Below, one piece after another: positions 2,002-58,470 of a stretch of 64,000 nucleotides of DNA. Within the stretch, counting starts at the first letter, position 1; every line of letters starts with the position of its first letter. The stretch lies in NCBI GenBank assembly GCA_021732785.1, contig JAKFUG010000017.1, forward strand, positions 51,352 through 115,351. Direction: 5' to 3'. The stretch comes from Planctomycetaceae bacterium. GTDB taxonomy: Bacteria; Planctomycetota; Planctomycetia; Planctomycetales; Planctomycetaceae. Position numbers and translations under genes: made by a program. The notes beneath the pieces were generated by a model. That model did not search any database. It was not told the DNA's origin and was given only the letters and a program-made list of their open reading frames with translations.

Positions 2002-3177
2002 TTACAGAATCCCCGGGCCTTTCACGTCGATGCCCTTGAGCATCATCTTCAGTTCTTCGGCGTTCGGGCTGATTTCGAAAGCATCGTTGCGGCTGATGAA
2101 TTCCATCTTCAGGAAGTGGTGCAGGCTATCGTTGAACTGCTGCATCCCTTCCTGCTTGCCAATGCGGATCGCCGCCGGGAGCTTTTCGTCGCTGCCTTCC
2201 AGAATCAGTTTCCGGATCGTGCCGTTGAAAAGCATAATCTCCTGAACGGGAACGCGCTTCGGCTTGTCGACGATCGTCGCCAGCAGTTTCTGGGCGACGA
2301 TCGCTTTCATGTTGAAGCCCATCGAGCTACGGAGCGCGTTGTGCATGCTCTGCGGGAAGAGGTCGAGAATACGTCCGATGGTCGACGGCGCGGATGAAGC
2401 GTGAATCGTTCCATACACGAGGTGCCCTGTTTCGGCGGCGTGCATGGCCGTTTCGAATGTTTCGCGGTCGCGCATTTCGCCCACGAGCATGATGTCGGGG
2501 TCTTGGCGCACGGCGTGTTTCATCGCCACGTGGAAGTCGATCACATCGCAACCGAGTTCGCGCTGATTGATCAGACACTTATCGGCCGTATACACGAATT
2601 CGACAGGGTCTTCGATAGTCAGAATGTGCTTGATATAGGTGTGGTTGATGTAATCCAGCATGGATGCGATCGTCGTCGATTTGCCGGAACCGGTCACGCC
2701 GGCGAGGAGCACCATCCCCTGATCGTACACGCACAGGTCGCGCAAGATCGGCGGCAGGAACAAGCCTTCAAAGTTGGGAATGTTCCGTTCGACTTTACGG
2801 CTGACCATCCCCATCTTGCCGGTTTGAATGAAGAGGTTCACGCGGAACCGCCAGAGTTCCCCTTTGTGCTCCATCACGTGGGCATAGTCGGCCCCGCCGG
2901 TCGCGAAAAAGATTTCCTGGTTCCGCTCGTCCATCATGGGCAAGCAGATTTCTTTCATCTTCTCTTCAGTGATGGGAGGCATATCCAGCGGTTTGAGCGT
3001 GCCACGGACGCGGAGAATCGCGGGCTTGCCCACCTGCAGGTGCAAGTCCGAGCCGTTGAGTTCGATCAGCGCCTTGAACAGCTTGTTGACTTCGAGGTCG
3101 CGGAGGTTGGCGCTCCCCAGGCGAATGGAATTGAATTTGGACGCGACGGCAGAACCACCACCACTCATGAGAGACAC
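2002..3177 (-). CDS. pilT: Type IV pilus retraction ATPase PilT
   Basis: 391 aa. Walker A GVTGSGKST, Asp box and His box are present. Full-length similarity to PilT/PilU twitching-motility ATPases. Confidence 0.9.
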   Translation of the reverse strand: MSLMSGGGSAVASKFNSIRLGSANLRDLEVNKLFKALIELNGSDLHLQVGKPAILRVRGTLKPLDMPPITEEKMKEICLPMMDERNQEIFFATGGADYAHVMEHKGELWRFRVNLFIQTGKMGMVSRKVERNIPNFEGLFLPPILRDLCVYDQGMVLLAGVTGSGKSTTIASMLDYINHTYIKHILTIEDPVEFVYTADKCLINQRELGCDVIDFHVAMKHAVRQDPDIMLVGEMRDRETFETAMHAAETGHLVYGTIHASSAPSTIGRILDLFPQSMHNALRSSMGFNMKAIVAQKLLATIVDKPKRVPVQEIMLFNGTIRKLILEGSDEKLPAAIRIGKQEGMQQFNDSLHHFLKMEFISRNDAFEISPNAEELKMMLKGIDVKGPGIL

Positions 3178-3346
3178 TCCCTTGGGGAAGCACGCAAGAA
3201 AACTGCGGGAAGCCGGATCAATTCGAGACGGACACCGGGGAGCGACACGTCTCCACCAAGGCCACCATCAACGTTCATTCTAACCCAAAAGGCCGGGCGA
3301 ACGGCAAGAGGAAGCGCGCGCAATCCGTGAACGGCAGACTCTGTTT

Positions 3347-3441
3347 GAAGAGTCGGGGCGGGGGCCCCGGCCTATGGATGTAAAAATCAACCTGAAATCA
3401 TAGGTCGGGGCCCCTGCCCCGACGCCTTTGAATTCAAACGG
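3347..3441. repeat. Palindromic hairpin element, family 1 copy 1 (GTCGGGGCGGGGGCCCCGRCCTA stem, ~22 nt AT-rich loop)
   Basis: About 25-bp GC-rich inverted arms around an AT-rich loop. Near-identical copies at 13184-13280 and 16371-16462. Confidence 0.8.
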
Positions 3442-3496
3442 TCGCATCACCTGCGATCAGCATATCTATCCACACGCATTCGGCGGGAATCAGCCG

Positions 3497-4903
3497 TTAC
3501 TTTTCCGCGATGCCCGGCGCGGCCACTTTGTTTTTCTGCAGCCAATCATCCAGGGCTTTCACCTGCTCGACCGTCACCTGCTGACCCGAGAGAAGGCTGT
3601 TCGTAATGGGCAGCACTAACTGATAAACCGGTTCAAACGCAGGAGTGGTCTGGGCATTGTTGCGGAAACCGCCTTTCGCTCGTTTCGCGGCATCCATGTC
3701 GGACGCATCCAGCGCGTTAAACGCCAGGTAGAGGAACCAGAAGTTCGTTTTCCAGATGGGATTCTTCGGCTGCTGCTGGGCCGCTTTCGCCAGGTCACGA
3801 GCAAACAGGGCCACTTCCCCGACCACGGTCGGCACATTGACGGACGGATCAAACGGCACGCGTCCCAGACTGCGGGCGGCCATTGCGCGGACTTGCCAGT
3901 CGCGCGCTGGATCATTCATCACCATTCGCAGCGTATCGACGATAAACGGCTTGCGGTTCTGCAGATCGAGGGTGACATCCAGCAGGGAGAGCGCTTCCGC
4001 CAGCCGCAACTGATACCAGAAGAACTTTTTCCCGTCCTTCAACTCCGCCACGATGGCATTGGCAACTTCGTGCTTGACGGGGACGCTGGGAACGCCGTAG
4101 CGCAACAAACGCACAATGCTGCGTGCCGCGGCGATTTTCACCGCCGGCGGTTGCTCGGGATCGGCGAGCACCTTGGCGAGCAGTGGCAAACCGTCGGCAA
4201 AGGCTTCCAGCTTCAAATTCCGCTGCGTATCGGTCTCGGTGAGATCCAATTCGCCGACGAGTGTCACCGCCTGAATGCGGACATACAGATTCTTCTTCAA
4301 CAACGCTTCCGACTGCTTGACGATTTCCGCCAGAATAAAGCGGCGGAAATTTCGCACGTCGGCGGCGGGGGCGAGTTTGCCAGCTTGCTGCAGATCGCGG
4401 ATGGAAAGGTCTTCACGCTTCACGTGCAGGTTCTGCAAGTTGTCTTTTTCGCAGAGCTGGGCCAACCGATACTTGATCCCCTTCCGGATGATGTTCTTGT
4501 CTTCGTCCTTAAGATTGCCGGTGCTGCCGCGGATCGCGCTTTTGTAGCGGTTTTCGAACTTCTTCAGGTCGGCCAATTCCTCCGGAGTTACCAGCGGCTC
4601 GAAGTCGATCATGACATCGGGTCTATCTGGCGGAACTTTGTATCCCTTGGGCAAACCGGTGACGGGATCGAGATTCGGGTCAACCGGTTTCGTGGGCATC
4701 ACGGCCGGTTTCGGTTTCGCAGTTCCGCCCGGAGCGGGCTTGGTGACCGCTTTTCCCGCGGCGCCCTTTTTGGGATCGGGTTTCTTCGCCTGAGCGAAGA
4801 CCTCGCGCGCCGGGACCGTCAGCAGACTCAGCATGATGAGGCTGACTGTGAGGAAAGATCCCACAAAACGTCCATCAACCTGCGGCAATTCGGCTTGACG
4901 CAC
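3497..4903 (-). CDS. Secreted HEAT/ARM-repeat protein with Lys/Pro-rich N-terminal region
   Basis: 468 aa with an N-terminal hydrophobic signal or anchor. Repeated alpha-helical motifs resemble HEAT repeats (LLAKVLADPEQPPAVKIAAARSIVRLL). Confidence 0.45.
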   Translation of the reverse strand: MRQAELPQVDGRFVGSFLTVSLIMLSLLTVPAREVFAQAKKPDPKKGAAGKAVTKPAPGGTAKPKPAVMPTKPVDPNLDPVTGLPKGYKVPPDRPDVMIDFEPLVTPEELADLKKFENRYKSAIRGSTGNLKDEDKNIIRKGIKYRLAQLCEKDNLQNLHVKREDLSIRDLQQAGKLAPAADVRNFRRFILAEIVKQSEALLKKNLYVRIQAVTLVGELDLTETDTQRNLKLEAFADGLPLLAKVLADPEQPPAVKIAAARSIVRLLRYGVPSVPVKHEVANAIVAELKDGKKFFWYQLRLAEALSLLDVTLDLQNRKPFIVDTLRMVMNDPARDWQVRAMAARSLGRVPFDPSVNVPTVVGEVALFARDLAKAAQQQPKNPIWKTNFWFLYLAFNALDASDMDAAKRAKGGFRNNAQTTPAFEPVYQLVLPITNSLLSGQQVTVEQVKALDDWLQKNKVAAPGIAEK

Positions 4904-5464: not shown

Positions 5465-6193
5465 ATGACAGGGGCGGGGTGGATTCGAGACCAATCTGTT
5501 CGCATCGGGACTTGGCTGGGCGAACGGGAGCCGGTGGTTTTATTGAGCGCATTTCTGGTGATCGCCGGGATCTTGAGTTTTATCGAGATCGCCGACAGTG
5601 TTCGCGAGGGCGAGACGACTCACTTCGATGCCTGGGCCGTGCGGTCGCTGCGGAAGCCCGATGATCCGGCGGTCCCCATCGGTCCGCGGTGGCTGCACGA
5701 GATGGGCCGCGATGCCACGGCACTCGGCGGCATCGGCTGGCTGGTCTCATTCACGCTGGTGGTGGCCGGCTACTTGTGGCTCGCGGGGAAAAGCCATATG
5801 GCGACCTTGCTGATGGTCTCCTCCACCAGTGGAACGGCGTTGGCGTTTGGGCTGAAATCGCTGTTTGACCGGCCGCGGCCGGATGTGGTCCCGCACCTCG
5901 CGCATGTCAGTTCGAGCAGCTTTCCCAGCGCGCACTCGATGATGTCCGCGATTGTCTACACCACGCTTGGCGTCCTCGTGGCGAGTGTCGTGGCGCGACG
6001 CCGGTTGAAAGCGTACATCTTAAGTCTGTCGCTATTGCTGACCGTCGTCGTCGGTCTCAGCCGCATCTATCTCGGCGTGCATTATCCCACGGATGTGCTC
6101 GCCGGTTGGATGGCCGGCCTCGTGTGGGCGCTGCTGTGCTGGCTCATCGCACGCTGGCTGCAACGCCTGGGGACTGTCGAACGCGCCGAATGA
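5465..6193 (+). CDS. PAP2 family phosphatase (phosphatidic acid / undecaprenyl-PP phosphatase-like)
   Basis: PAP2 motifs KxxxxxxRP (KSLFDRPRP), PSAHS and SRIYLGVHYPTD. Multi-TM. GGAGG RBS before the ATG at 5465. Confidence 0.8.
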   Translation: MTGAGWIRDQSVRIGTWLGEREPVVLLSAFLVIAGILSFIEIADSVREGETTHFDAWAVRSLRKPDDPAVPIGPRWLHEMGRDATALGGIGWLVSFTLVVAGYLWLAGKSHMATLLMVSSTSGTALAFGLKSLFDRPRPDVVPHLAHVSSSSFPSAHSMMSAIVYTTLGVLVASVVARRRLKAYILSLSLLLTVVVGLSRIYLGVHYPTDVLAGWMAGLVWALLCWLIARWLQRLGTVERAE

Positions 6194-13183: not shown

Positions 13184-13280
13184 GAAGAGTCGGGGCGGGG
13201 GCCCCGACCTAAGATTTTAGACTGATTTTACATCCATAGGTCGGGGCCCCCGCCCCGACGTCTTTGGATTCAAACGGCCC
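13184..13280. repeat. Palindromic hairpin element, family 1 copy 2 (loop inverted relative to copy 1)
   Basis: Same stems and flanks as 3347-3441, but the loop sequence is its reverse complement. Confidence 0.8.
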
Positions 13281-16370: not shown

Positions 16371-16462
16371 AAGAATGTCGGGGCGGGGGCCCCAACCTAT
16401 GATTTCCCATGGATTTTCATATATATAGGTCGGGGCCTCTGCCCCGACTCTTGAAACCGACC
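16371..16462. repeat. Palindromic hairpin element, family 1 copy 3
   Basis: GTCGGGGCGGGGGCCCCAACCTATG ... ATAGGTCGGGGCCTCTGCCCCGAC. Lies in the divergent region upstream of recQ. Confidence 0.8.
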
Positions 16463-25013: not shown

Positions 25014-25240
25014 CACAGAGAACACAGAAGCACAAAAAAGTGGGCGAATGAGAGGAGGGGGAACCACGGAATACACGGAAAGGAGATAAAGAGTGAAGAT
25101 GGCGATTGCGGAGAGGGGGGACAAGCCTTTCCACTTCCGTTCCATTATTTTCCTTGCTCTCGTCTTCCTTCCGTGTCCTCCGTGTATTCCGTGGTTCTCT
25201 CTCTTCCCATCTTTTCTATGTTCTCTGTGTCTTCTGTGGA
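25014..25240. repeat. MITE-like element, family 3 (nested inverted repeats GGAACCACGGAATACACGGA..GACACGGAAG)
   Basis: Outer and inner inverted repeats with an 85-bp core. A second copy at 51205-51525 has a different core. Confidence 0.7.
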
Positions 25241-33209: not shown

Positions 33210-33744
33210 TGTGCTTGCGCTTAGCGGACACTAGTCGCGTGCTAAGCGCAAGCAGTCATAAGACGAGAGAAATCAGGAGAGCGGTGGGCTCAATCCTTCA
33301 CGAAGAGTCTGCCCATTCAAAACGTGGTCGAGAGCACACGTCTCAACCGGCCTGCGAGGTTAGCTGACGGGCTAGAGCTTGAATGTGCTCCGGTGAACTC
33401 GGGCATCGCCGTTGTCCCACCTGCGCCCCATGCGGCTCGTCGTGAAGACGTTCCGCGTTGGTTCCCCCGCTCTCGTGTCCTGCCACGAGACTCGGCTGCA
33501 TCCCTGACATTATGGCAAGTTGCAACTTCAGACAGAAAAGATGCGAACGGCATGCCGGACAATGCAGATTGCCCGAAGATCTTGTTGCCGAATTACTTAT
33601 GGCTGGCATATTCCGGACGTTGCGATGTGTCGAGACAGTTGGTTTTCAGGAAATAGCTTCCGTGCACTGATTGCGCGGCTGTGGGCTGGTGATGTGGGGT
33701 TGAATTTATCCCATCCAATGGTATGATTTGGCTGTGTCGTCCCC

Positions 33745-37606: not shown

Positions 37607-39244
37607 TCACGGCAACAGGGGACCGAACACCGGCGCGTCCTTCGCCCAGTCGAACAGTTGATCGCGCAGGGCGACTGCCGTCTCTTCGTACGAGCCTGCT
37701 TCGCGCCCACCCGCCAGGCTGGTGCTGCCGACATAAGTTCCCCACTTGTCGGCAGTGGAAACCGCATACATGGCATTGAACCACAGCCGCCCGGAATTGC
37801 TGGGATCGACGGCGATGCCGTTGTAATCACCCCACCGGATGCGGCCATTCGAGTTGACGGTGTAGGCACGTTGGCCTTCCCGCAGCAATCCCAGCGGTTG
37901 AATGTTGCCATTCAGGTCGATCTGCGTGTAGAGACTCCCGGGATATCGGGTGCTTCCCGAGAAATTGAAGATCGTCCCCAGATTGCCATTCCCCGAAACC
38001 GCGACCGCAGGGTAATAGTAGTAGAACGAAGGTGAGCCAATCGTCACATCCAGTGACTTTGTGAAGTTGCTGGTGTTGACTCCAATATATTGGGCAGCAC
38101 ACGGGAATGTGCCTCGCTGTGCGGTATGCGTTGTATAGAAGCGGTTGTTGCGATAGACCGCGTTCTGCAACCGGGCATCTCCGCTGTCCAGTCGCGCAGT
38201 CGAGTCCTTTTGCACGGCGGTTTGTGGCGCGGTCCAACTGTTGACGGCGATCGAACGGCGGTTCATCACCCGCGTGGAAACCGCGATGTCGAAGAACGTG
38301 ATCGAACTGCCTGAACCGGACGAACAGGCGGCCAGATACTCGCTGCCGGGGGTGCCGAAAGTGATCGCCGGCTGGATCGTAAAGACCCGGTTGTTGCTGG
38401 CATCGCGGACGTCGGCGAACTCGAATCCTGACAGCGATTGTCCTGCATACGCGGCCGCTTTGGGATACAAGCGGATTTTGGCATACTGAAAGGCATTCGA
38501 GGAATTGAACTGGTTGGAGGTGATATAGAAGTATGTGTTGTCGAAGCCGAGTTTTTCGTAATCCGCCCAGAAACCCGTATCGGTGTTGGGAAAATCGATA
38601 TCATTTCGCAGATAATAGACCCACCAGTTGTTGCCATTCGTCGTCGGAATTCCCGTTTTGGAAACGGCCAGGATGTACCAGCCATCGGTTTTGGCGGAAT
38701 TGCGCGTGATGGTGAGAACGATGAATCGGCCGGAGAAATGGTCGTACGCGCAGACCGGATCGAAAACCGTGGTCCCTCCAGACGGAATACCAAAGATCGT
38801 CTGTAGCGTACCGGTCGATGCAATGCCCCCCAAGCGGTTGGAGACCCGCATCGTGCTGTTCACGACTTGCAACACATGATTGGGTCCGACGGCCAGATGG
38901 GGATCCGCCGGGCGAAAGCCCGTATCCCCAACCCCTTCAAATGTCGTGCCCGTCGCCGGGGCGTTACTACCGATACGCGACGGCGGGGCGAGCTGAATGC
39001 TGCCGGAATTATCGGTTGGGAGCGCGGAACGTTGGGTCATGCCGTCGGCCCATTCGGGCAAGGCTCCCACATCGAGATCCACTTCCCCCGAGCCGGAAGC
39101 CCGACGGGCTTCGACCGGAACAGGGTGGGCGGCTTCCGATGCGGCTTGCGGGAGTTGTTGGGCAAACGCTCCATCCGGTGCCTGACACAGTACGCCGAGC
39201 AGGAGCAGCCGTATTGATGAGGAAATCGTTGTGCTGCGATGCAT
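37607..39244 (-). CDS. Secreted hypothetical protein (545 aa, beta-rich)
   Basis: Signal peptide MHRSTTISSSIRLLLLGVLCQA. No family recognised. Confidence 0.45.
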   Translation of the reverse strand: MHRSTTISSSIRLLLLGVLCQAPDGAFAQQLPQAASEAAHPVPVEARRASGSGEVDLDVGALPEWADGMTQRSALPTDNSGSIQLAPPSRIGSNAPATGTTFEGVGDTGFRPADPHLAVGPNHVLQVVNSTMRVSNRLGGIASTGTLQTIFGIPSGGTTVFDPVCAYDHFSGRFIVLTITRNSAKTDGWYILAVSKTGIPTTNGNNWWVYYLRNDIDFPNTDTGFWADYEKLGFDNTYFYITSNQFNSSNAFQYAKIRLYPKAAAYAGQSLSGFEFADVRDASNNRVFTIQPAITFGTPGSEYLAACSSGSGSSITFFDIAVSTRVMNRRSIAVNSWTAPQTAVQKDSTARLDSGDARLQNAVYRNNRFYTTHTAQRGTFPCAAQYIGVNTSNFTKSLDVTIGSPSFYYYYPAVAVSGNGNLGTIFNFSGSTRYPGSLYTQIDLNGNIQPLGLLREGQRAYTVNSNGRIRWGDYNGIAVDPSNSGRLWFNAMYAVSTADKWGTYVGSTSLAGGREAGSYEETAVALRDQLFDWAKDAPVFGPLLP

Positions 39245-39640
39245 GAGCGGCCCTTTCTAAAATGCTACTTCAGTAACGACATGGAAACTGATGCGTCGTG
39301 ATCAACGGGAATGATGTCGATGCCACTCATCGTAATCCACGAAGCCTTCAGCGACCCTCACACTATCTCGCGGCATATGAAGCTTCAAGGAGGCGGCAAT
39401 CAGGTTATTGCCCATCGCACGGGTATAAATACCAAGGCGAATCGCGTTGGTGACCATCGCGTTGTTACGGCGGGAACGATTACGGTTGCAGGCGGGTCGT
39501 TCGCAAAGGAGCGCCGATGAGAATCCGCTCACGAAGAAACCCTTGCTCCGTGGACTCGAAGCCGACGCGGATTACAGTGACGTCGGTTGCGTTGAAACGC
39601 ACCTCTTTCACCTCATACCCAATCTGTCGAGCGTCGTAAT

Positions 39641-39765
39641 GCACCCTACTAACTTACCAGCGGTAGAGCGCCGTTCCCCAAGTCAACCCGGCGGGTGACT
39701 GGGGCGAAGTCTGCGCCGCCCCAGAAGCAGCGCGGTCATCTGGGTTGTCGACGACTCCAACCCAG
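39641..39765 (-). repeat. Repeat family 7 copy 1, includes a relic of the fabH 3' end
   Basis: The reverse complement encodes ...SPAGLTWGTALYRW* (compare the FabH C-terminus GFGAGLTWGTALYRW*). This is followed by a CTGGGGCGAAG..CGCCGCCCCAG hairpin and a GGGTTGTCGACGACTCCAACCC palindrome. Confidence 0.6.
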
Positions 39766-39778
39766 CCACTCGCGCATT

Positions 39779-40306
39779 TCACTTCGCGACGTTCGATGCC
39801 GGTGGTGGCGCGAGGGATGGTCCAGATGGGGGCGATGCCGCCAACGGGGTTTTCTTCAGGAACTTCTTGAGCGGAATGTCGTAGTATCTTGCTCCGGCCG
39901 TGGGCCCAGTCATTTGCGATCGACCATCCACCGTCATGGTGAAGATCCGAACCACAGCGCGGTCGGCGAATTCCTTTCCGACCTCCACCTGCCCGGTGAG
40001 ATTGCCGTCCTCGGTGGGCTTCATCGCGATGGGCGTCTTCACGAGATTCGTGCCCGTCTGATTCGGATTACTGAACGCCATCACGAAGACCGAATGAATG
40101 GGCTTGAGTTTCCCTTGATCTGCCAGCGTGAAGTGGACGGTCAGCATGTCGCCATGGGTGGCGTCCACTTCAACGTCGTACTTCAATCCCCACTCGTCTT
40201 TCGACGGACCCAGCGCATACCAGACCGCCCAGGTGCGGCTCGTCATCAGGACCACGGCGATGATGACGAGCAAACCTGCCGCGCGGGGCAAAATTCGAAA
40301 GACCAT
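39779..40306 (-). CDS. Hypothetical membrane-anchored protein
   Basis: 175 aa with an N-terminal TM and a Pro-rich C-terminus. Confidence 0.4.
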   Translation of the reverse strand: MVFRILPRAAGLLVIIAVVLMTSRTWAVWYALGPSKDEWGLKYDVEVDATHGDMLTVHFTLADQGKLKPIHSVFVMAFSNPNQTGTNLVKTPIAMKPTEDGNLTGQVEVGKEFADRAVVRIFTMTVDGRSQMTGPTAGARYYDIPLKKFLKKTPLAASPPSGPSLAPPPASNVAK

Positions 40307-40479
40307 GTCAGTGACACCTCATGAAGATCGCGGTCGCCGATTCACGTATCGGAAGGTCGGCTATACCCATCGCGCGACGCATTGAACCAGTCCACCTCGA
40401 TTCGAGCAATATCAATCGGAGTCGTGTAGGGCGGGCTCTGCCCGCCAGCTTGATGTACCGCGCGTGGTGGGGAGCGCGT

Positions 40480-40600
40480 CCTGCGAGAGTTACTTCCACG
40501 CCGCCGGTGTCCCCGGGCCGGGTGGCTGGGGCGAAGTTCTCGCCGCCCCAGAAATAACGCTGCCTCTGGGTTGTCGAAGACTCCAACCCAGCCACCCGCC
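40480..40600 (-). repeat. Repeat family 7 copy 2 (3' of lepB)
   Basis: About 85% identical to 39641-39765 over roughly 80-120 bp. Confidence 0.6.
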
Positions 40601-40617
40601 GTGGCGCTCAGCGGAAC

Positions 40618-41457
40618 TTATTCAATTCTTTGGCCAATCCGCGGCCAGCGAATCCGGCCGGATTCGTAATGCGTTGTGTCGTCTGGATTGGGAAACCGTC
40701 TCTCGACCGAAAAATAGATCAACATCGCTCGACTATGAAAGCTGGAAAAAGGAATCGGGCCAAGCGTGCGGCTGTCGTTTGAGCGACGTCGATTGTCTCC
40801 AAGGACAAAGAACTCACCCGCGGCAATCGTGCTCGGTCCATAGTTGGAAAGTTCAGGAACGGGGGCCAGTTCGGGATCGAGGAATCCATGTGGATCAGCC
40901 CGCTCTTCGTCATTAAGAAAAACCTTTTCATTACGGATTTCGATCCGGTCCCCCGGCAATCCGACCACACGCATCACCCACAACGCCGAGTTCGGCCCCC
41001 GACTGGAAAACACAACAACATCATCGTGGCGCAGATTCGAAGGGCGAGACCAGAGTTTGTCTGCGAGTAATCGATCACCCGGAAGCACCGTAGGGGACAT
41101 CGCGCGCGTCGGCACAACAAACGCTTCCGTGATGTTGTCACGAATGGCATAAGCGATGGCGTTGTTAGTTACCACTGCGATGACGTAAGCAAGGAGATAG
41201 GTCCACCATCGCTGATATGGACGCAACAGCGTGGCACGTTGTTGCGCTGCCACTCGATAAGCATCGACGATCAGGAACAGCGAATAGCCGACATAAAACA
41301 GCGCACCGGTGAAGATTCCCAATGGACCGGACGTGAAAGGAATTGTCAGAAAGAACAGGAGGGCAAGAATATGGCCCCCGATCCAAAGCAATAGCCCACG
41401 ACGAAGCCGACCGGCATACATGTGTCCGAGCGATCCGCCCAACAGCGCTAGCAGCAC
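40618..41457 (-). CDS. lepB: Signal peptidase I
   Basis: S26 boxes: Ser box VPTRAMSPTV, Lys box (VMRVVGLPGDRI) and GDNRRRSNDSR. The N-terminal TM extension is longer than usual. Confidence 0.85.
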   Translation of the reverse strand: MLLALLGGSLGHMYAGRLRRGLLLWIGGHILALLFFLTIPFTSGPLGIFTGALFYVGYSLFLIVDAYRVAAQQRATLLRPYQRWWTYLLAYVIAVVTNNAIAYAIRDNITEAFVVPTRAMSPTVLPGDRLLADKLWSRPSNLRHDDVVVFSSRGPNSALWVMRVVGLPGDRIEIRNEKVFLNDEERADPHGFLDPELAPVPELSNYGPSTIAAGEFFVLGDNRRRSNDSRTLGPIPFSSFHSRAMLIYFSVERRFPNPDDTTHYESGRIRWPRIGQRIE

Positions 41458-41530
41458 GGCCAGTCAAGGATGTCGAGGTTTCGCAGGAATTGCCGACATG
41501 CGGAATGTCCCGCTGCAACAAAACGCGGGC

Positions 41531-42571
41531 TTACCAGCGATACAGTGCCGTACCCCAGGTCAATCCGGCGCCGAAGCCGCTCATGAGGACGGTGTCGCCG
41601 CGGTGGATGAGGCCGCGCTGGTAGGCTTCGTCGAGGGCAATCGGAATCGAGCCCGCGGACGTGTTGCCGTACTGCTGGAGATTGTTGAACACCCGGCTGC
41701 TGGAGATGCCGAGCTGTTCCATCGCGTAATTGATGATGCGGATGTTGGCCTGGTGCAGGACGTACAGCGAGACGTCGTTCACCCCCAGCCCACTCTTCCG
41801 CAGCACCAGTTCGATGGTTTCGGTGACGGCCCGGACCGCCCATTTGAAGACGTTGCGGCCGTCCATTTGCAGGTATTGATCGCCGGCGTCGAGCGTGGCA
41901 TGCGTGAGGGGCGACTTGCTGCCGCCGCTCTTGCGATCGAGCATGCAACCGCCGGAACCGTCAGAGCCCATCTGATAACAAACGAGACCCTGATGCGGGT
42001 CTCCTTTAGTCATGAGCACGGCCCCGGCGCCGTCCCCAAAGAGGGGGGCGACCTTCTGATCGGCCGGGTTCACAATGCGGCTGTTGCAGTCGCCGCCGAT
42101 GACGAGAGCCATCTTGCTGTTGCCGGTGGCGACATACTGGGCCGCCGTCGACATGGCATACACAAAGCCAGAACAGGCCGCGTGAACGTCGAACGCCGGG
42201 GCATCAATGCCGAGCGCATCCTGCACGAGATTCGCGGTTGTGGGACATTGGTAATCGGGGGTGAAGGTGCCGACGACAACCAAGTCGATTTGCCGCGGGT
42301 CGATGTTGCCAGCGCGGAGCGCGCGTTTGGCGGCTTCGATACAGAGATCGCTGGTGGCTTGTTCGGGGGCCACATAGCGGCGGGCGAGAATGCCCGTCCG
42401 TTGCTCGATCCATGCCGAGTCGCAACCGTAGCGGGATTGCAGATCGGCGTTGGTGATAATCGTTTCAGGAAGGTACGAACCCGTGGCGACGATCTGCACG
42501 CCCAGCAGGGAGCGCGTGCGCTGCGACCACGATTTCGTCGGTGCGGCATCGGAGGAGGCATCGACAAACAT
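41531..42571 (-). CDS. fabH: 3-oxoacyl-ACP synthase III
   Basis: Active-site Cys in AACSGF, plus His and Asn regions, and the typical C-terminus GFGAGLTWGTALYRW. Confidence 0.9.
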   Translation of the reverse strand: MFVDASSDAAPTKSWSQRTRSLLGVQIVATGSYLPETIITNADLQSRYGCDSAWIEQRTGILARRYVAPEQATSDLCIEAAKRALRAGNIDPRQIDLVVVGTFTPDYQCPTTANLVQDALGIDAPAFDVHAACSGFVYAMSTAAQYVATGNSKMALVIGGDCNSRIVNPADQKVAPLFGDGAGAVLMTKGDPHQGLVCYQMGSDGSGGCMLDRKSGGSKSPLTHATLDAGDQYLQMDGRNVFKWAVRAVTETIELVLRKSGLGVNDVSLYVLHQANIRIINYAMEQLGISSSRVFNNLQQYGNTSAGSIPIALDEAYQRGLIHRGDTVLMSGFGAGLTWGTALYRW

Positions 42572-42995
42572 CGATCGTCCTAATGCCGCACGCGGCAGGT
42601 CTGCGACCATGGACTCCATCGGCGTCACCCTGGGAGCGGGAGAGCTATCGTACACAGCAAGTGCATCCTTGCGCCGAGGGCCCTGCTACGGAGCGATCCG
42701 GTCGTTGTTCTGCAATTTGAGCGCAGTCCAGCATCAGTTCGACTTCGTAACGTGGATTGTCCGTAAACCTTGCGGCAGCCTTGATTCCCTCGAAGTATAT
42801 CGACGGAGCCCAAACCCATCCAGCGAACCGCCCTTCCTGATTTGACTTTCGGAAATCCGGATGCGGTTCTGACGACTGGCGAAAGTCTGCACCCTCGGCA
42901 CGTTGCGGCATTATGGCAAAGGACGAGATTCCGGCAAGACGAATTCCCAACCCCCCGGGAATGCAATCCCGCCGCCCCTCTTTCATAATGACGTA

Positions 42996-45757: not shown

Positions 45758-45821
45758 TCCTCAAAAAGGTTTCACTTCCACGACGATCCTTCGTCGCAGG
45801 TGATTTCACAGATCATTTTTA

Positions 45822-45908
45822 ACAAGCCCGAAGCGCGAGCGCCGGGTTCTTCTTCGTTCGTTATTCGAGATCAATGCGAAAAACCCGGCGCTGGCGTTTC
45901 GGGCTTGT
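45822..45908. repeat. Hairpin element, family 2 copy (inside the sigma / anti-sigma / PDZ gene string)
   Basis: ACAAGCCCGAAGCGCGAGCGCCGGGT ... ACCCGGCGCTGGCGTTTCGGGCTTGT. Confidence 0.7.
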
Positions 45909-49328: not shown

Positions 49329-49415
49329 TACAAGCCCGAAGCGCGAGCGCCGGGTTCTCTTTATCATGCCGTAAAGCAAAATTCGAAGAACCCGGCGCTC
49401 GCGCTGCGGGCTTGT
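49329..49415. repeat. Hairpin element, family 2 copy (divergent intergenic region)
   Basis: ACAAGCCCGAAGCGCGAGCGCCGGGT ... ACCCGGCGCTCGCGCTGCGGGCTTGT. Confidence 0.7.
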
Positions 49416-49563
49416 GAATGCGGTTTTCCCCCTACAAGGGCGAATTTTCTCGACTTTTTCTCTGCGATTCCGCTATGCTCGCCGAATCAACCACTTTCGA
49501 TGCGTTGCTGTCCGCAAAGTTCCGCATCGCTGGTCCCCGCACCTCTCTGAAAAGGCGGCAACG

Positions 49564-51138
49564 ATGGCTCCTCGTTCTCGACGTGAATTCCTGGCCGATG
49601 TCGGTTGCGGAATGGTGGTCGCGGGTATCGGTTCCGCGACGGCGTTCGATCTCGGTCTCGCCCCGGCTTGGGCCAAAGAAGGCGACGGCCCTGAACTCGC
49701 CTTCGGTGATCGTGAACCGCTGGTCCGCCTGTTGCAGGACACCAGCGCGGACAAGATGCTGCCGATGGTGGTCGAACGTTGGAAGCAGGGAACGTCGCTG
49801 GAAGAAATCGTGGCCTGTGCGGCGCTCGCGAATGCCCGCACGTTCGCCGGGGAAGATTACATCGGCTTCCACACGATGATGGCCCTCACGCCGGCGCTGA
49901 AGATGGCCCGCGAGATGCCGACGGCAATCAGCTTGCTGCCGATCCTGAAAGTGCTCCATCGCAACAGCACCCGCATTGAAGAACACGGCGGGCATGCTTC
50001 GGAAAAAATGCACCCCGTCGCCTTCGATGCCACGCAAACCGCCGTTCCGTCACCGGACCAGCTTCATCAGGCGGTGCTTGGAAAGGACAAAGTGCAGTCG
50101 GAAGAACTTTTCGCGCGGATCGCCCGGCAGTCTCCCGACGCGGCGTTCAACAGCGTGCTCGAAGTTGTGCAGGACAACACGGAAGTGCATCGCGTGGTGA
50201 TGCCGTACAAAGCGTGGGAACTGCTCGATGTCGTCGGCCGCGAGCACGCTCATTCGCTGCTGCGGCAATCGGTGCGGTACTGCGTGAAAGCGGAGATGAA
50301 CACCCACAACGATTATGCCCGCGGCGGCAGCCAGTTGTTGCCGAAGCTCTTCGATGAACACAAGCTGTTGTCGAAACCGTTCGGGACTTCACCGGCTGAT
50401 GACGCCTGGGTTGACCATCTCTCGAAAACGATTTTCCAGAGCACGCCCGATGAAGCCGCGGCGGCGGTGGCGATGGCGCTCACCGAAGGGTTCGCCCCGG
50501 ATGCGATCGGCGAAGCGGTGACACTCGCAGCGAATCAGTTGCTGCTGCGCGATAAGGGACGGCCGAAATCGCAAGCCCAGGCGACCAAGCCCGAAGGCAG
50601 CATCCACGGCGATTCCATCGGCGTGCATGCGGGGGATTCGGCGAATGCGTGGCGGAACATGGCCCGCGTCGCCAATCCGCGGAATGTCGCCGCATGTCTG
50701 ATTCTCGGTGCCTGGCAAGTCGCATTCGATCGCACGTCGCGCGGCGGTGACTTCCTCGCCTGGCAACCGTGGCCGTTGTCGGAACACACCGAGACGTTGA
50801 AGTCCGCGGCCAGTCAGCTTTCTGCGGATGACGTGTTGAAGACGCTGGATAATGCCATCCGCGCGAACGATCAGGCGCTCGCCAGCGCGGCAACGGCCGC
50901 ATTTGCTGATCGCGACGGCAACCCTGCGGCGATCTTCTCATTGTTGCGCGGCTATGCGATCAGCGAAGACGGGGCCTTGCACGCGGAAAAATACTACCGC
51001 ACCGTCAGCCAGGAATTCGCCGAAGCCCGCGCCGCGTTCCGGTGGCGGTATGTGATCGGTCTGTCCCGCGTCACCGCCAGCGAATTCGGCCGGCCCGCGC
51101 CGGGAGTGGCGATCGCCCGTGAATTGCTGCACGGATAA
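49564..51138 (+). CDS. Tat-signal exported all-alpha hypothetical protein
   Basis: Twin-arginine motif [17 protein letters not shown]. No recognisable family. Confidence 0.5.
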
Positions 51139-51204
51139 TTCAGACAGAGAAACCAACGCCTCGCCCGCACCCCGGTTGCTTCCGTGCAGCCGGGGTGCTT
51201 TCGT

Positions 51205-51525
51205 TTCATGTGGTGGAAATAAGAGAGGAACCACGGAATACACGGAGGACACGGAAGAATACCGGAATGAAAAGTCAGAGGGCGGAGCGACTGACACGCA
51301 TTCCAGGAGTCATCCGTGCGTTTTGAAACGTGCCGCTCATCACGCGGAGCGTGATGGCCACCATGGTAGCCATCACGCTCCGCGTGATGAGCGGATCCCA
51401 CACAACGCGCTGTTCATTGTTAGGATCAGTATGACACGATCTCCGCCGGACCGAGATTTCTTGATCCTGATCTTTTCCAATTCCGTGTCTTCCGTGGTTC
51501 GCTCCGTTTTTCTGTTCTGTGGTTG
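51205..51525. repeat. MITE-like element, family 3 copy 2 with nested 64-bp near-perfect palindrome (51333-51394)
   Basis: Terminal inverted repeats GGAACCACGGAATACACGGAGGACACGGAAG / ATTCCGTGTCTTCCGTGGTTC. Inner palindrome CGCTCATCACGCGGAGCGTGATGGC...GCCATCACGCTCCGCGTGATGAGCG. Confidence 0.7.
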
Positions 51526-51592
51526 CGAACTCCCCGCACGGCGGCGACACTGCGGATTCGAGTTCATTCCAATCAGGCACGAGGAAACGCAG

Positions 51593-52387
51593 ATGCGCAA
51601 GAATCCGGTGAAGGCGGCCTTGAGGGCGGGGCAGCCACAAGTGGGAACGTGGCTCTCGTTGGGGAGTGTCTTCGCCGCGCGGGTGATGGCCCGTGTGGGC
51701 TTTCCGTGGCTGACGGTCGACCTCGAACACTCGCCCATCGGTTGGACCGACGCTGGCTTGCTCTTCGGCGCGATTGCCGACGCTGGCTGCACCGTGTTGG
51801 CCCGCGTGCCGAAGGGCGATCACGATTACATCAAGCGCGTGCTCGACGCCGGGGCGCACGGCATCGTGGTGCCGATGGTCAACACCGTGGAAGAAGCGAA
51901 GATCGCGATCGCCGCCGCGAAGTATCCCCCCGCGGGCAACCGCTCCGTCGGCGGATCGATGCACGCCCTGAATTTCGACGCCACCGCGGGTGACTACTTC
52001 AAGCATGCGAACGATGAGATTCTCGTCGTGCTGCAAACCGAATCGCCGCAGGGGGTCGAGAATGCCGACGCGATCTACAGCCTGCCGGGCGTGGACGCCA
52101 TTTTCGTCGGCCCTAACGATCTCACCTTCCAGATGCGCGACAAGGACGGCAACGATCCCACCCCGGAAGTGTTTGAAGCGGCGTTGCAAAAGATTCTCGC
52201 CACCGGCAAGAAGCACGGCACCCCGGTCGGCCTGCATGTGCAAAGCGTCGATCAGGTCAACCGCCGCATCGCCGAAGGCTGGCAATTCATCGCGATCGGC
52301 AGCGAACTCCGCTTCATGACGGTCGAAGCGCAGAACATCGTGAAGTCCCTGAACCTCGCCACCGCAAAAGACCTCGCGCGGTATTAA
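51593..52387 (+). CDS. HpcH/HpaI family aldolase (2-keto-3-deoxy-sugar acid aldolase)
   Basis: TIM-barrel class II aldolase. GAGGAA RBS before the ATG at 51593. Confidence 0.8.
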
Positions 52388-55949: not shown

Positions 55950-57311
55950 ATGATTCCTGGAAAGAATCGTCATCAGCGACCGTTCGCGATTCCTCTCCAC
56001 TGGCTGCCATTGATGTTTGCTTTCGCTATTCGCAACTTGTTCAGCCGACCGATTCGGACCGTCCTCGCCTTGCTGGGGCTGTCCGTCGCCATCATGGGAA
56101 TGGTCGGGCTGTTCTCCGTCGCGGCGGGGTTGCAGGCCACGATCGATCAAACGTTCGGTCGGGTCCCCGGATTGCTCGCGATGCAGCCCGGCGCGCCGTT
56201 TCCGCTGTTCTCGAAATTGCCCGCCAGTTGGGCCGATGAAATCGCACAGTTCCCGGGCGTGAAAACCGTGTGCCGGGAACTCTGGTCGCGCGTGCAACTG
56301 GTCGATGGCAAAGTGACGTTTAATCCCCCGCGGTTTCTCTTCGGGATGGATCTCGACAACGTGGGCCATTTGACGAAAAGTGTCTACCGCGGCGACATCG
56401 TCGAAGGCCGGTTTCTGACCCCGGACGACGAAGACAAACTCAACTGCGTGATCAGCGGCGAGATCGCCCGCGACTACAAAAAAACGGTCGGCGACATTCT
56501 GCGGGTCGACGGCGTTGACCTCACCATCGTCGGCATCTATGAGACCGGATCGATGTTGCTGGATGTCGCCATTCTTGTGCATAGCGCCACCGGCCGGAAA
56601 ATGATGCAGTTCGACCCGGCATCGATTTCATCGTTGTACATCGAGCCCGATGGAACCGTGCCGAACGAAGTTCTGCTGGCAACCATTCAACAGCACTTCA
56701 AAGGCCGCGGGCCGGCTGCGGAGCTGTCCATGAGCGCGCTGACCGGCGGTGGTCCTCAGGGCGCGATTACCGACATGGCGCTGAACCTGCTCTCCGGCAG
56801 CAAGCCGAAGCCAGCACCCAAAGCGGAGAAGGATTCTCCTTTGAAGGTCGTTGATGACGACGGCATCGAGGTCCGCACGGCACAGGAGTTCGGCCAGCGA
56901 CTCAACAGCTTCAGTTCCGAACTCGATATCTTTCTGTGGTTGATGAATACTATCGGGGTGGTGATCGCGCTGCTGAGCATTCTCAACACGATGATGATGA
57001 GCGTGTCCGAACGGTTGATCGAGTTCGGCGTGTTGCGGGCGAATGGCTGGACCGCGCGGGATGTCCTCAAGCTGATCGTGGCGGAAAGCGCCGTGCTCGG
57101 CTTCTGCGGCGGGGCGATTGGCTGCGTGCTGGGATGGCTCGGCACCTTCGTGGTGAACTGGTATTTCGCGGCGAAGATTTATTTGTACGCGAGCCCGCCG
57201 CTGTTGTTGACGAGCCTGATCTTTGCCATCGCCCTGGGGATTTTTGGAGGTGTCTACCCCGCGATGATGGCCGTGCGAATGTCGCCGATTGACGCGATTC
57301 GGAGAGGATAA
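55950..57311 (+). CDS. ABC transporter permease, FtsX/MacB/LolE family
   Basis: N-terminal TM, large periplasmic domain and a C-terminal 3-TM FtsX domain. No ATPase gene is adjacent. Confidence 0.8.
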   Translation: MIPGKNRHQRPFAIPLHWLPLMFAFAIRNLFSRPIRTVLALLGLSVAIMGMVGLFSVAAGLQATIDQTFGRVPGLLAMQPGAPFPLFSKLPASWADEIAQFPGVKTVCRELWSRVQLVDGKVTFNPPRFLFGMDLDNVGHLTKSVYRGDIVEGRFLTPDDEDKLNCVISGEIARDYKKTVGDILRVDGVDLTIVGIYETGSMLLDVAILVHSATGRKMMQFDPASISSLYIEPDGTVPNEVLLATIQQHFKGRGPAAELSMSALTGGGPQGAITDMALNLLSGSKPKPAPKAEKDSPLKVVDDDGIEVRTAQEFGQRLNSFSSELDIFLWLMNTIGVVIALLSILNTMMMSVSERLIEFGVLRANGWTARDVLKLIVAESAVLGFCGGAIGCVLGWLGTFVVNWYFAAKIYLYASPPLLLTSLIFAIALGIFGGVYPAMMAVRMSPIDAIRRG

Positions 57312-57421: not shown

Positions 57422-57793
57422 ATGCGAACCCATTGTTTGATCGCGGGGGCAATGGCTCTATTGTGTGTATTCTCGACGGTGGAGTCCGCCCATGCGAACG
57501 TCAACGGTAAAGCGTTCGCGGCGACGATTTACACTCTTTCGCAAACGCACTACACGAACACGTACATCTTTGCCGACGATGGCGGCGATCCGAACACCGG
57601 GCCGTTTGGCGTCATGGAGGGAGGACAAGGGAACTGGCAACAGTGGCCCCTGCAACAGCTCTCTCTCTGGTCGGCGGCCTATTCCTACGGGAACAGAACA
57701 TCGAACATTACCGGCATTCAAGTCGGCACGCGGATGTATGGTTACGGAAACAGCAGCACCGGGGGCTTGTTTCTCGTCTTGCCCTATCCGTAA
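57422..57793 (+). CDS. Small secreted protein, paralog 1 of a tandem pair
   Basis: Signal peptide. Conserved V.GK.F....YT....F.D.G....GPF....GG.G.WQ with 58063-58470. Confidence 0.5.
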   Translation: MRTHCLIAGAMALLCVFSTVESAHANVNGKAFAATIYTLSQTHYTNTYIFADDGGDPNTGPFGVMEGGQGNWQQWPLQQLSLWSAAYSYGNRTSNITGIQVGTRMYGYGNSSTGGLFLVLPYP

Positions 57794-57912
57794 TCCAAAG
57801 TGAACCGCGGTGGCTATGGCTGTCGCCACCGTCACACGCCGGTTTGATCGGCATGCCGCGGTTTGTGACTGCACGGTGATTCGAGAACCAGCAGACTCAC
57901 CTCACCGCAGCA

Positions 57913-57962
57913 TATAGCCGGCCGTGCGAATGTCGCCGATTGACGCGATTCGCCGCGGATAA
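57913..57962 (+). pseudogene. Duplicated 3'-terminal fragment of the ftsX permease gene
   Basis: GCCGTGCGAATGTCGCCGATTGACGCGATTCG is identical to 57270-57301, the end of the permease ORF. Confidence 0.6.
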
Positions 57963-58062: not shown

Positions 58063-58470
58063 ATGTTCGCCCATCGATCCCTGCTGGCAATTGCCACACT
58101 CGCGGTTGTCTTGACAGTCAGTGGTTCGGCTCACGCCGACGTCAAAGGGAAGACGTTCCCTGTGAATGTCTACACCAGTTTTGCTACCAGCTTCAGCGAC
58201 AACCTCACCTTTGGCGATGGCGGCAGCCCCGCCATGGGCCCATTTACATCGCAACAGGGCGGCGCGGGAACCTGGCAGGAAACGAACATCGGCCCCCTCG
58301 CCATCTGGTCGTGCTTCTTTGTTGACGGATCGCAGTTTCGCGTCGATCTCGGCGGCCTGCAGTACGGCACGTTTCTGATTGGTACCGGCGGCAGCAATGA
58401 AGGTGATCGGTATTTGGTGATTTCCGCTCAGCCGACCGGGCGGAGTGCGGGCGGTTCCTACAAGCCGTAA
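58063..58470 (+). CDS. Small secreted protein, paralog 2 of a tandem pair
   Basis: Signal peptide MFAHRSLLAIATLAVVLTVSGSAHA. Homologous to 57422-57793. Followed by the hairpin TCACCCCTC..GAGGGGTGA. Confidence 0.5.
   Translation: MFAHRSLLAIATLAVVLTVSGSAHADVKGKTFPVNVYTSFATSFSDNLTFGDGGSPAMGPFTSQQGGAGTWQETNIGPLAIWSCFFVDGSQFRVDLGGLQYGTFLIGTGGSNEGDRYLVISAQPTGRSAGGSYKP

Follow-up and report, generated by a model that had tools for sequence, protein, structure and literature searches.

Downstream of fabH in a Planctomycetaceae bacterium, two consecutive genes, lepB and a gene for a hypothetical protein (g175), are each followed by a structured repeat, and each repeat adjoins the orphaned tail of another gene. 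The question raised by this locus is what the repeats are and how the gene tails came to lie beside them. We examined it in a 64,000-nucleotide stretch of contig JAKFUG010000017.1 (assembly GCA_021732785.1, positions 51,352 to 115,351), here termed the window. Both repeats are REPINs, i.e., doublets of repetitive extragenic palindromic (REP) sequences, of a Planctomycetaceae system that comprises REP sequences and REP-associated tyrosine transposases (RAYTs). Most probably, these REPINs sit in a gene-turnover hotspot, the gene tails (relics) are scars of gene replacement rather than parts of the repeats, and the REPINs arrived secondarily.

Anatomy of the two repeats

The order fabH, lepB, repeat, hypothetical gene, repeat on the minus strand, as claimed in an initial annotation made from the sequence alone, was confirmed by open reading frame (ORF) and domain calls. 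Logan contigs from two sequencing runs reproduced 40597-38592 and 40594-38667 at 100% identity; because the two were assembled separately and agree, the arrangement is not an assembly artefact. The features, in the direction of transcription, are as follows.

41531..42655, minus strand: fabH (beta-ketoacyl-ACP synthase III), with Pfam ACP_syn_III and ACP_syn_III_C domains and homologs of up to 93% identity
41531..41569, minus strand: live fabH 3' end, AGLTWGTALYRW plus stop, the counterpart of the relic
40601..41519, minus strand: lepB block, with a ~60-nt leader, the signal peptidase I gene (40618-41457; Peptidase_S26, TIGR02227) and a ~17-nt trailer
40520..40597, minus strand: HP2, REPIN
40490..40519, minus strand: orphaned g217 end, nine codons plus stop, GPGTPAAWK
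39779..40306, minus strand: g175, hypothetical membrane-anchored protein of 175 aa, without a Pfam or NCBIfam match
39693..39771, minus strand: HP1, REPIN, its right-hand tag mutated (GTCACCC)
39654..39692, minus strand: orphaned fabH 3' end of a second allele, 12 codons plus stop, directly at the HP1 right end

The unit common to HP1 and HP2 measures 78-79 nt. The repeats had initially been described as units of about 120 bp; alignment reduced this to the common part of ~79 nt, the extra bases being flanks that differ between the copies. Both halves of the unit match with 0 mismatches at only two places, compared to 0 expected in shuffles. An nhmmer profile of the repeat recovered the two known units and no other full or half copy within the 64-kb window, so that a proposed search for more copies, confined here to the window, succeeded for the known pair and added none.

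On the gene-sense strand, the left REP reads GGGTGGC-CTGGGTTG-(10 nt)-CAACCCAG and is followed by a spacer of 14-15 nt and by the inverted right REP, CTGGGGCG-(10 nt)-CGCCCCAG-CCACCC. Each repeat thus consists of two inverted REPs, each with an outward-facing GGGT(G/A)GC tag and then an 8-bp stem, and the left REP aligns with the reverse complement of the right REP over 33 nt. The halves of one doublet differ by compensating stem changes (TTG/CAA versus GCG/CGC). Across 14 REP half-units from five genomes, stem pairing was 97.3%, with compensatory double changes at two stem positions (UA to or from GC, CG to or from UA); no column shuffle reached the observed pairing score, and no register shift came near it. 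Each half is therefore an imperfect palindrome with a tag at its foot, as defines a REP, and the two form a hairpin-forming doublet, as defines a REPIN. Nearly all units carry the tag GGGTGGC; one related locus (L005) has GGGTAGC instead, and GTGG is a one-base variant of the GTAG tag.

The hairpins named in the initial annotation are present in both repeats. Two folds are open to the unit, a pair of small hairpins and a single long one, and as DNA it alternates between them. As RNA of the gene-sense strand, the long hairpin has folding energies of −45.8 and −54.0 kcal/mol (z of −3.4 and −5.1); the opposite strand folds less well (−40.6 and −49.2 kcal/mol) because the gene-sense RNA gains from G-U pairs. 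HP1 begins 8 nt past the g175 stop and HP2 20 nt past the lepB stop, and in all seven copies whose left flank is readable the repeat starts 8-20 nt past a stop codon and has the same sense as the gene before it.

These properties raise the possibility that the repeat is kept mainly as an RNA or DNA structure at gene ends (for instance to stabilise mRNA 3' ends, to terminate transcripts or to regulate translation termination) and was spread by selection. REPs near stop codons affect mRNA stability and translation in E. coli, and both the position shortly behind stop codons and the better folding of the gene-sense RNA agree with such a role. No T run follows either copy, however, the terminator and promoter scan called nothing at the repeats, and Rfam searches (permissive over 39000-42000, at gathering threshold over the whole window) returned no family there. 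The near-identical sequences in unrelated contexts and genomes and the association with RAYT genes, described below, point instead to mobility. Structural maintenance as the main explanation is thus rather unlikely, and a structural role as such is compatible with, and not exclusive of, the replacement-scar explanation favored here.

A REPIN family linked to RAYT genes

Near-identical doublets occur in four Planctomycetaceae assemblies (L005, L006, L007, and L009) and in a metagenome contig (L008). L005-L007 and L008 were found by exact-pattern scans, which gave three relevant loci in a species-representative genome collection and one in a metagenome collection; L009 was retrieved via RAYT homologs, as was L011, whose doublets are divergent and have a CTGGGTCG stem. 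The spacer is 14-22 nt in the window-type copies and reaches ~60 nt in L011. The genes around the doublets in L005-L009 and L011 are unrelated to those of the window. A Burkholderiales hit from the exact-pattern genome scan (L004) was rejected as a chance match, and two exact-pattern viral scans gave no match.

The ORF at 1090-1662 of L008 scored 114 bits against NCBIfam REP_Tyr_transpos (cut-off 80) and also matched Pfam Y1_Tnp. Homologs of a truncated RAYT paralog in the same contig are labelled RayT by their source, and the full-length members P0145 and P0175 exceed the same NCBIfam cut-off. The RAYT genes in L008, L009, L010, and L011 are all flanked by inverted GGGTGGC-tagged REPs, which in L011 are two full doublets. 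Because REPs with the same tag surround RAYT genes in these relatives, the repeat is assigned to a RAYT system, and we conclude that HP1 and HP2 are both REPINs of a Planctomycetaceae REP/RAYT system.

REPINs are non-autonomous and are moved by a RAYT, an IS200-type Y1 HUH tyrosine transposase encoded elsewhere in the genome. This enzyme acts on single-stranded DNA, in which it recognises the tagged hairpin, and transposition of the doublet leaves no target duplication. The window repeats resemble the REPIN/RAYT systems of P. fluorescens and the REP and bacterial interspersed mosaic elements of E. coli in having inverted palindromic REPs around a short spacer with one long hairpin possible, in carrying a conserved tetranucleotide-type tag at the outer REP foot (GTGG here, GTAG in one copy), and in lying outside genes, just behind them; in the related genomes, Y1/HUH RAYTs are likewise flanked by inverted REPs. 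They match the published definitions of REPIN and RAYT (PMC3337134), and tagged REPs have already been reported in Planctomycetes (PMC3733652).

L008 also contains a second REP type that shares the GGGTGGC tag (stem CCCAGACGCTG..CAGCGTCTGGG; 1090-1119 on the plus strand and 1678-1707 on the minus strand). These second-type REPs flank the complete RAYT gene in inverted orientation, and the truncated paralog (727-1086) adjoins them with a window-type REP on its 5' side.

Comparison with integrons and insertion sequences

The initial annotation had likened the GGGTTG/CAACCC pair to integron attC sites, in which case lepB and g175 would be cassettes. Integron cassettes do offer a parallel in structured repeats placed tightly behind same-orientation, promoter-less-looking genes of variable content, and here the repeats lie directly behind the stops of two consecutive same-strand genes. 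The likeness did not survive inspection: both strands of the two copies and of their surroundings lack the R'' box (RYYYAAC) and the R' box (GTTRRRY), no complementary R''/R' pair spaced 50-140 nt apart occurs anywhere in the window, and GGGTTG/CAACCC closes one small inner hairpin rather than a whole site. The statement that no integrase is present was correct for the window, where tblastn with the integrase of a related contig (L001) detected no tyrosine recombinase and Pfam detected no recombinase domain in 26 scanned ORFs (20 of them run specifically for recombinases); the suggested search for an intI-like recombinase accordingly came back empty over these 64 kb, with no IntI beside the array. 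In relatives, moreover, lepB and g175 occur without the repeat, and the same-tag REPs flank RAYT genes instead. An attC identity for the repeat is therefore extremely improbable.

IS200/IS605 elements and palindrome-associated transposable elements (PATEs) share with the repeats the Y1 HUH transposase superfamily, subterminal hairpins in single-stranded DNA and the lack of a target-site duplication at the ends. In contrast to such elements, the interval from HP2 to HP1 lacks tnpA and tnpB, and there is no common target tetranucleotide. In L001, g175 and the end of a gene for a 217-residue protein (g217) are at the same place next to fabH without hairpins; because g175 occupies the same locus there without them, HP2-g175-HP1 is not a transposon, nor does it form an IS200/IS605 or PATE unit.

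The fabH relic beside HP1

Alignment of 39653-39693 with 41530-41570 gave 35 matches in 41 positions. The relic proper (39654-39692) translates to AGLTWGTALYRW plus stop, identical to the live FabH C-terminus, and shares 33 of 39 nt with it. All six differences are in third positions and synonymous (P = 8e-5 for six random substitutions sparing the peptide), the longest identical run being 10 nt, and the relic and the live end are about equally distant from the L001 allele. Since the divergence is exclusively synonymous, the relic comes from another orthologous fabH allele and not from a duplicate decaying in place; the two ends drifted apart at a time when both still encoded protein. The relic is thus the stranded end of a second allele, joined too recently for decay, and it marks a recent gene insertion. 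The insert is flanked by direct repeats of the target gene 3' end (41531-41569 and 39654-39692).

This result supports the homology noted earlier between the real fabH 3' end and the flank of the repeat behind g175. Aligning the three regions showed that the broader claim, a FabH terminus at the start of each copy, holds for HP1 and fails for HP2, whose flank is the end of g217. Repeated duplication of the fabH terminus, one of the two origins first suggested, is accordingly replaced by a single relic from another allele.

Several candidate traces of the event were rejected. In a mosaic test against L001, fabH identity is ~80% in the 5' half and 90-97% in the 3' half, but a breakpoint cannot be claimed because other relatives show a weaker form of the same trend. 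The CAGTGGTACCCGGTAAG that precedes the lepB leader in L014 was not accepted as a decayed fabH relic, being too short and part of a local hairpin, and the likeness between the window sequence after the relic and the L014 sequence after fabH (GTAGGGT..CGACGC in both) is too weak to call. No second fabH end was present downstream at the fabH loci of L001-L003, which were searched for orphaned ends.

Gene turnover after fabH

If the genes behind fabH were inserted, as the initial annotation suggested, relatives should differ there. In eight related fabH-carrying contigs, similarity to the window past the fabH stop is either absent or cassette-specific, which makes the region a gene-turnover hotspot and bears out the suggestion. 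The contents behind the fabH stop include the following.

L001 (FabH 93% identity): g217, then g175
L002 and L012 (FabH 85% and 86% identity): YfhO-like gene
L003 (FabH 79% identity): HEAT-repeat gene
L013 (FabH 83% identity): other genes
L014 and L015 (fabH DNA 90-93% identical): ~280 nt of unrelated sequence, then lepB

The synteny breaks are seen directly. Continuous similarity to the window ends at the fabH stop in L001-L003, L012, and L013 and resumes only in L001, at g175; no downstream similarity was detected in L002, L003, L012, or L013. The gene lepB is missing from six of the eight contigs and follows fabH only in L014 and L015, and none of the related contigs has both lepB and g175, which answers the comparison of fabH-lepB synteny that had been proposed. 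fabH itself is conserved, and the variable region is bounded on the left by the fabH stop codon. At the other side of the same conserved block, L001 shows a second synteny break, where similarity to the window gives way precisely at an excisionase-like HTH_17 gene and a Phage_integrase gene (2495-3876) located ~2 kb upstream of fabH.

The g217 relic and the replacement by lepB

The flank of HP2 (40490-40519) reads GPGTPAAWK plus stop, and g217 of L001 ends in GGPSLVPVWK plus stop. From 40499 downwards, the window is 84.6% identical to L001 7608-8331, starting in the last g217 codons. In L001, the closest relative, g217 (217 aa) is intact between fabH and the g175 ortholog, which is native to this locus there, follows g217 and is of identical length to the window gene. 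The similarity to L001 ends 8 nt past the g175 stop, which is the HP1 start, and L001 g175 has no REPIN behind it. In L014, the last ~220 nt of g217 adjoin lepB directly, again without a REPIN. We therefore propose that lepB replaced the 5' part of g217 first. HP2 in the window lineage sits in place of ~190 nt more of the g217 remnant. The REPIN-free INTERMEDIATE, the lepB-for-g217 state, is shared by L014 and L015, and their lepB is 85% identical to that of the window. A further contig, L016, has the lepB block behind a different left neighbour, with similarity covering exactly 41519-40601, the last base before HP2.

Because the lepB block in L014 and g175 in L001 both occur without the repeat, the repeat is not a cassette recombination site. 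The second origin put forward initially, the insertion of genes as cassettes next to a conserved 3' element, fails for the same reason.

Similar scars at other genes

A mechanical search for orphaned 3' ends detected a second case in the window, and related loci show comparable arrangements. On the plus strand of the window, the end of an FtsX-type permease gene (57270-57311) recurs ~610 nt downstream at 57921-57962, with 40 of 43 positions identical. This 43-nt relic (93% identical to the live end) comprises the last 13 codons plus stop (AVRMSPIDAIRRG), and its differences are synonymous only (P = 0.02). A small secreted-protein gene (57422-57793) lies between the two ends and another gene (58063-58470) follows. 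There is no REPIN at this junction, only a GGTGGC..GCCACC mini-hairpin at ~57806-57831. An old tandem duplication was rejected as the origin of the relic, the flanking small genes having 39% protein identity and no DNA similarity. In L005, two toxin-antitoxin-like genes separate an AHSA1-like gene from its orphaned end, behind which a REPIN lies; all eight differences between the relic and the live end (1591-1626 versus 783-818) are synonymous (P = 1e-5). A possible REP remnant before this relic (TTCGCCAGGGCCACCCG) was missed by the profile and is doubtful at most. The order in L008 is DinG-like helicase gene, REPIN, reverse-strand gene, second REPIN (HP-b) and a helicase relic of ~70 nt (1721-1775 versus 2763-2817; 82% identical, the changes mostly synonymous, with one frameshift), which is touched by the HP-b right end. 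In L009, a RAYT gene with its REPs lies between a helicase gene and a 25-nt relic (4740-4764 versus 6055-6079), one RAYT-flanking REP being 15 nt from the relic. The right arm of the REPIN and the relic share one reading frame at three places, HP1 and HP2 of the window and HP-b of L008 (..SGAAxTSPQxP, then the relic). We found no explanation for such orphaned-end scars, often placed exactly at REPIN ends, and the literature on duplications in homology-facilitated illegitimate recombination provided nothing usable.

The contact between REPINs and relics suggests a more active part for the repeat. The REPIN may be a gene-capture agent whose right end is the fixed donor-side end of the incoming DNA, an unlikely role in our judgment. 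Its cause would be RAYT cleavage with one-ended strand transfer, or a hairpin that halts exonucleases on imported single-stranded DNA, and either is similarly doubtful. At the opposite end, homologous recombination in the conserved upstream gene would complete the join, and the product, again of low likelihood, would be that gene, the new genes, the REPIN and an orphaned end. In agreement with capture, the block ends exactly at ..CCCAG(C/T)CACCC and abuts the relic in HP1, HP2, and L008 HP-b, the right arm keeps the frame of the relic in these three cases, the L009 REP lies close to its helicase relic, and the relics are short (25-70 nt) with differences that are only or mostly synonymous where scored, as for DNA from another lineage. 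Against capture, the replacement of g217 by lepB in L014 and L015 and the FtsX junction in the window lack a REPIN, the L005 relic is preceded by no more than the doubtful remnant, the recipient junctions lack the common tetranucleotide that insertion of the IS200/IS605 type would require, and the loci are few and were selected for containing the repeat. Homology-anchored gene addition at conserved 3' ends, with the other end fixed by the REPIN hairpin and a synonymous allele scar left behind, has only a small chance of being correct.

The same scars could alternatively record a decayed site-specific integrative element or an accretion (similar to a cis-mobilizable element, CIME), with the live fabH end as attL, the relic as attR, and the integrase lost. 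Gene-end repeats that spare the protein are the classical signature of integrases, as in elements that target tRNA genes, fda, guaA, or rlmH. The 39-41 nt direct repeats correspond to a conserved gene 3' end and the element-side copy keeps the protein; as in known 3'-end-targeting elements, the orphaned target end is at the far side and the live copy encodes the same protein. The HTH_17 and Phage_integrase genes of L001 could also be cited in support. No integrase was found in the window, however, and the insert consists of lepB and g175 only, with neither an integrase inside it nor the same att use at the fabH loci of L001-L003. The L001 integrase is placed on the opposite side of fabH, and three genes common to L001 and the window lie between the two. 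At least five genes have relics (fabH, g217, the FtsX permease gene, the AHSA1-like gene and the DinG-like helicase gene), so that many systems would be needed for the many targets; at g217, the target gene was destroyed rather than regenerated; the longest identical attL/attR run at fabH is only 10 nt; and the blocks are tiny (0.6-1.9 kb). An integrative element is thus very unlikely. The likelihoods given for the alternatives were weighed separately and are not shares of one total.

How the locus may have formed

The explanation that we consider most probable is that of REPINs within a turnover hotspot, beside relics that are replacement scars and not repeat components. From the comparisons we infer an order of events that would begin with an ancestral fabH-g217-g175 arrangement, as in L001, in which lepB replaced the 5' two-thirds of g217 to give the L014 state. 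HP2 would next have taken the place of a further ~190 nt of g217 in the window lineage, with 30 nt of the remnant left. Finally, a block made of a fabH 3' end, lepB, g175, and HP1 may have been joined 39 nt upstream of the stop of the other allele, which would have stranded the last 13 codons (with the stop) of the recipient fabH allele behind HP1. The likeliest route of joining would be homologous recombination inside fabH on the left and an illegitimate join on the right. In general terms, foreign or allelic blocks may enter via a conserved upstream gene and join tens of bases before the resident stop, after which REPINs would settle in, or partly replace, the non-coding leftovers. Another strain has the lepB-for-g217 replacement but no REPIN there, so the REPINs seem to have colonised the non-coding scraps secondarily, at a later time.

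A known counterpart to this slot is found in Neisseria, where minimal mobile elements (MMEs) place different genes, by strain, beside a conserved gene, and neisserial intergenic mosaic elements (NIME) with dRS3 are small intergenic repeats; exchange of the MMEs presumably takes place by homologous recombination in flanking core genes. The window shares with the MMEs a variable slot beside a conserved gene. In contrast to them, only the left flank (fabH) is conserved in the relatives retrieved, and the right join is illegitimate with a duplicated gene end.

Several observations weigh against the explanation given above. The 64-kb window contains no RAYT according to tblastn with two RAYTs, so that the cognate transposase flanked by the same REPs, present in L008-L011, is absent inside it. 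The apparent copy number is low, with two doublets per 64 kb and exact-pattern matches limited to three species-representative genomes and one metagenome contig, whereas a genome with a classical REPIN population has tens to hundreds of copies. The tag is GTGG in all but one copy, rather than the canonical GTAG or CGTC, and the REPs of a doublet have diverged by the compensatory changes noted above, unlike those of REPIN/RAYT systems. Pseudomonas REPs mark old, stable regions, recent DNA being a "REP desert" (PMC3390384); the window REPINs, in contrast, occupy the most variable spot of the locus. Lastly, in three independent cases, all in frame, the REPIN right end touches the first retained codon of the relic, and secondary colonisation alone leaves this abutment and shared frame unaccounted for.

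Regarding copy number, short-read unitigs of the source strain end at window position 40569 (L017 and L018) or start at 40597 and 40594 (L019 and L020). Since the unitigs break inside the left REP of HP2, the same 31-mer must occur elsewhere in those samples. The L006 and L007 contigs also end within repeat copies, and the contig and unitig ends inside the repeat (L006, L007, L017, and L018) indicate further copies.

Other repeats and a riboswitch in the window

The window contains further structured sequences. A c-di-AMP riboswitch of the ydaO/yuaA type lies at 33335-33507 on the minus strand (55.7 bits, compared to a gathering threshold of 38). A dispersed repeat of ~30 nt, GAAGAACCCGGCGCTCGCGCT(T/G)CGGGCTTGT, is found close to gene ends in either orientation (~45806-45860, 49330-49358, and 49385-49418). 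The G+C-rich palindrome GTCGGGGCGGGGGCCCCGAC, with a CCTAnGATTT tail, follows several genes (3345-3423, ~13190-13220, and 16377-16405) and probably represents a family of terminator-like hairpins. The repeat GAACCACGGAATACACGGAGGACACGGAAG is present at two distant, inverted places (~25145-25210 and 51222-51257). At 51338-51389, inside or at the start of the ORF 51119-52387, small hairpins with GT(A/G)GCC tags stand head-to-head (CATCACGCTCCGCGTGATG) and resemble a different REP-like doublet.

Implications

The repeat itself is a modest gain: it extends a known class by a Planctomycetaceae REPIN/RAYT family with a GTGG tag. The orphaned gene ends with only synonymous changes are datable, direction-giving marks of recent insertion between lineages. 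If their association with REPINs holds genome-wide, repeats that are supposedly domesticated and vertically inherited would be tied to horizontal gene gain, and a simple sequence signature would become available for recent insertions in uncultured genomes. If gene addition fixed by the REPIN hairpin were true as well, REPIN/RAYT systems would be drivers of gene gain, beyond their role as intragenomic passengers.

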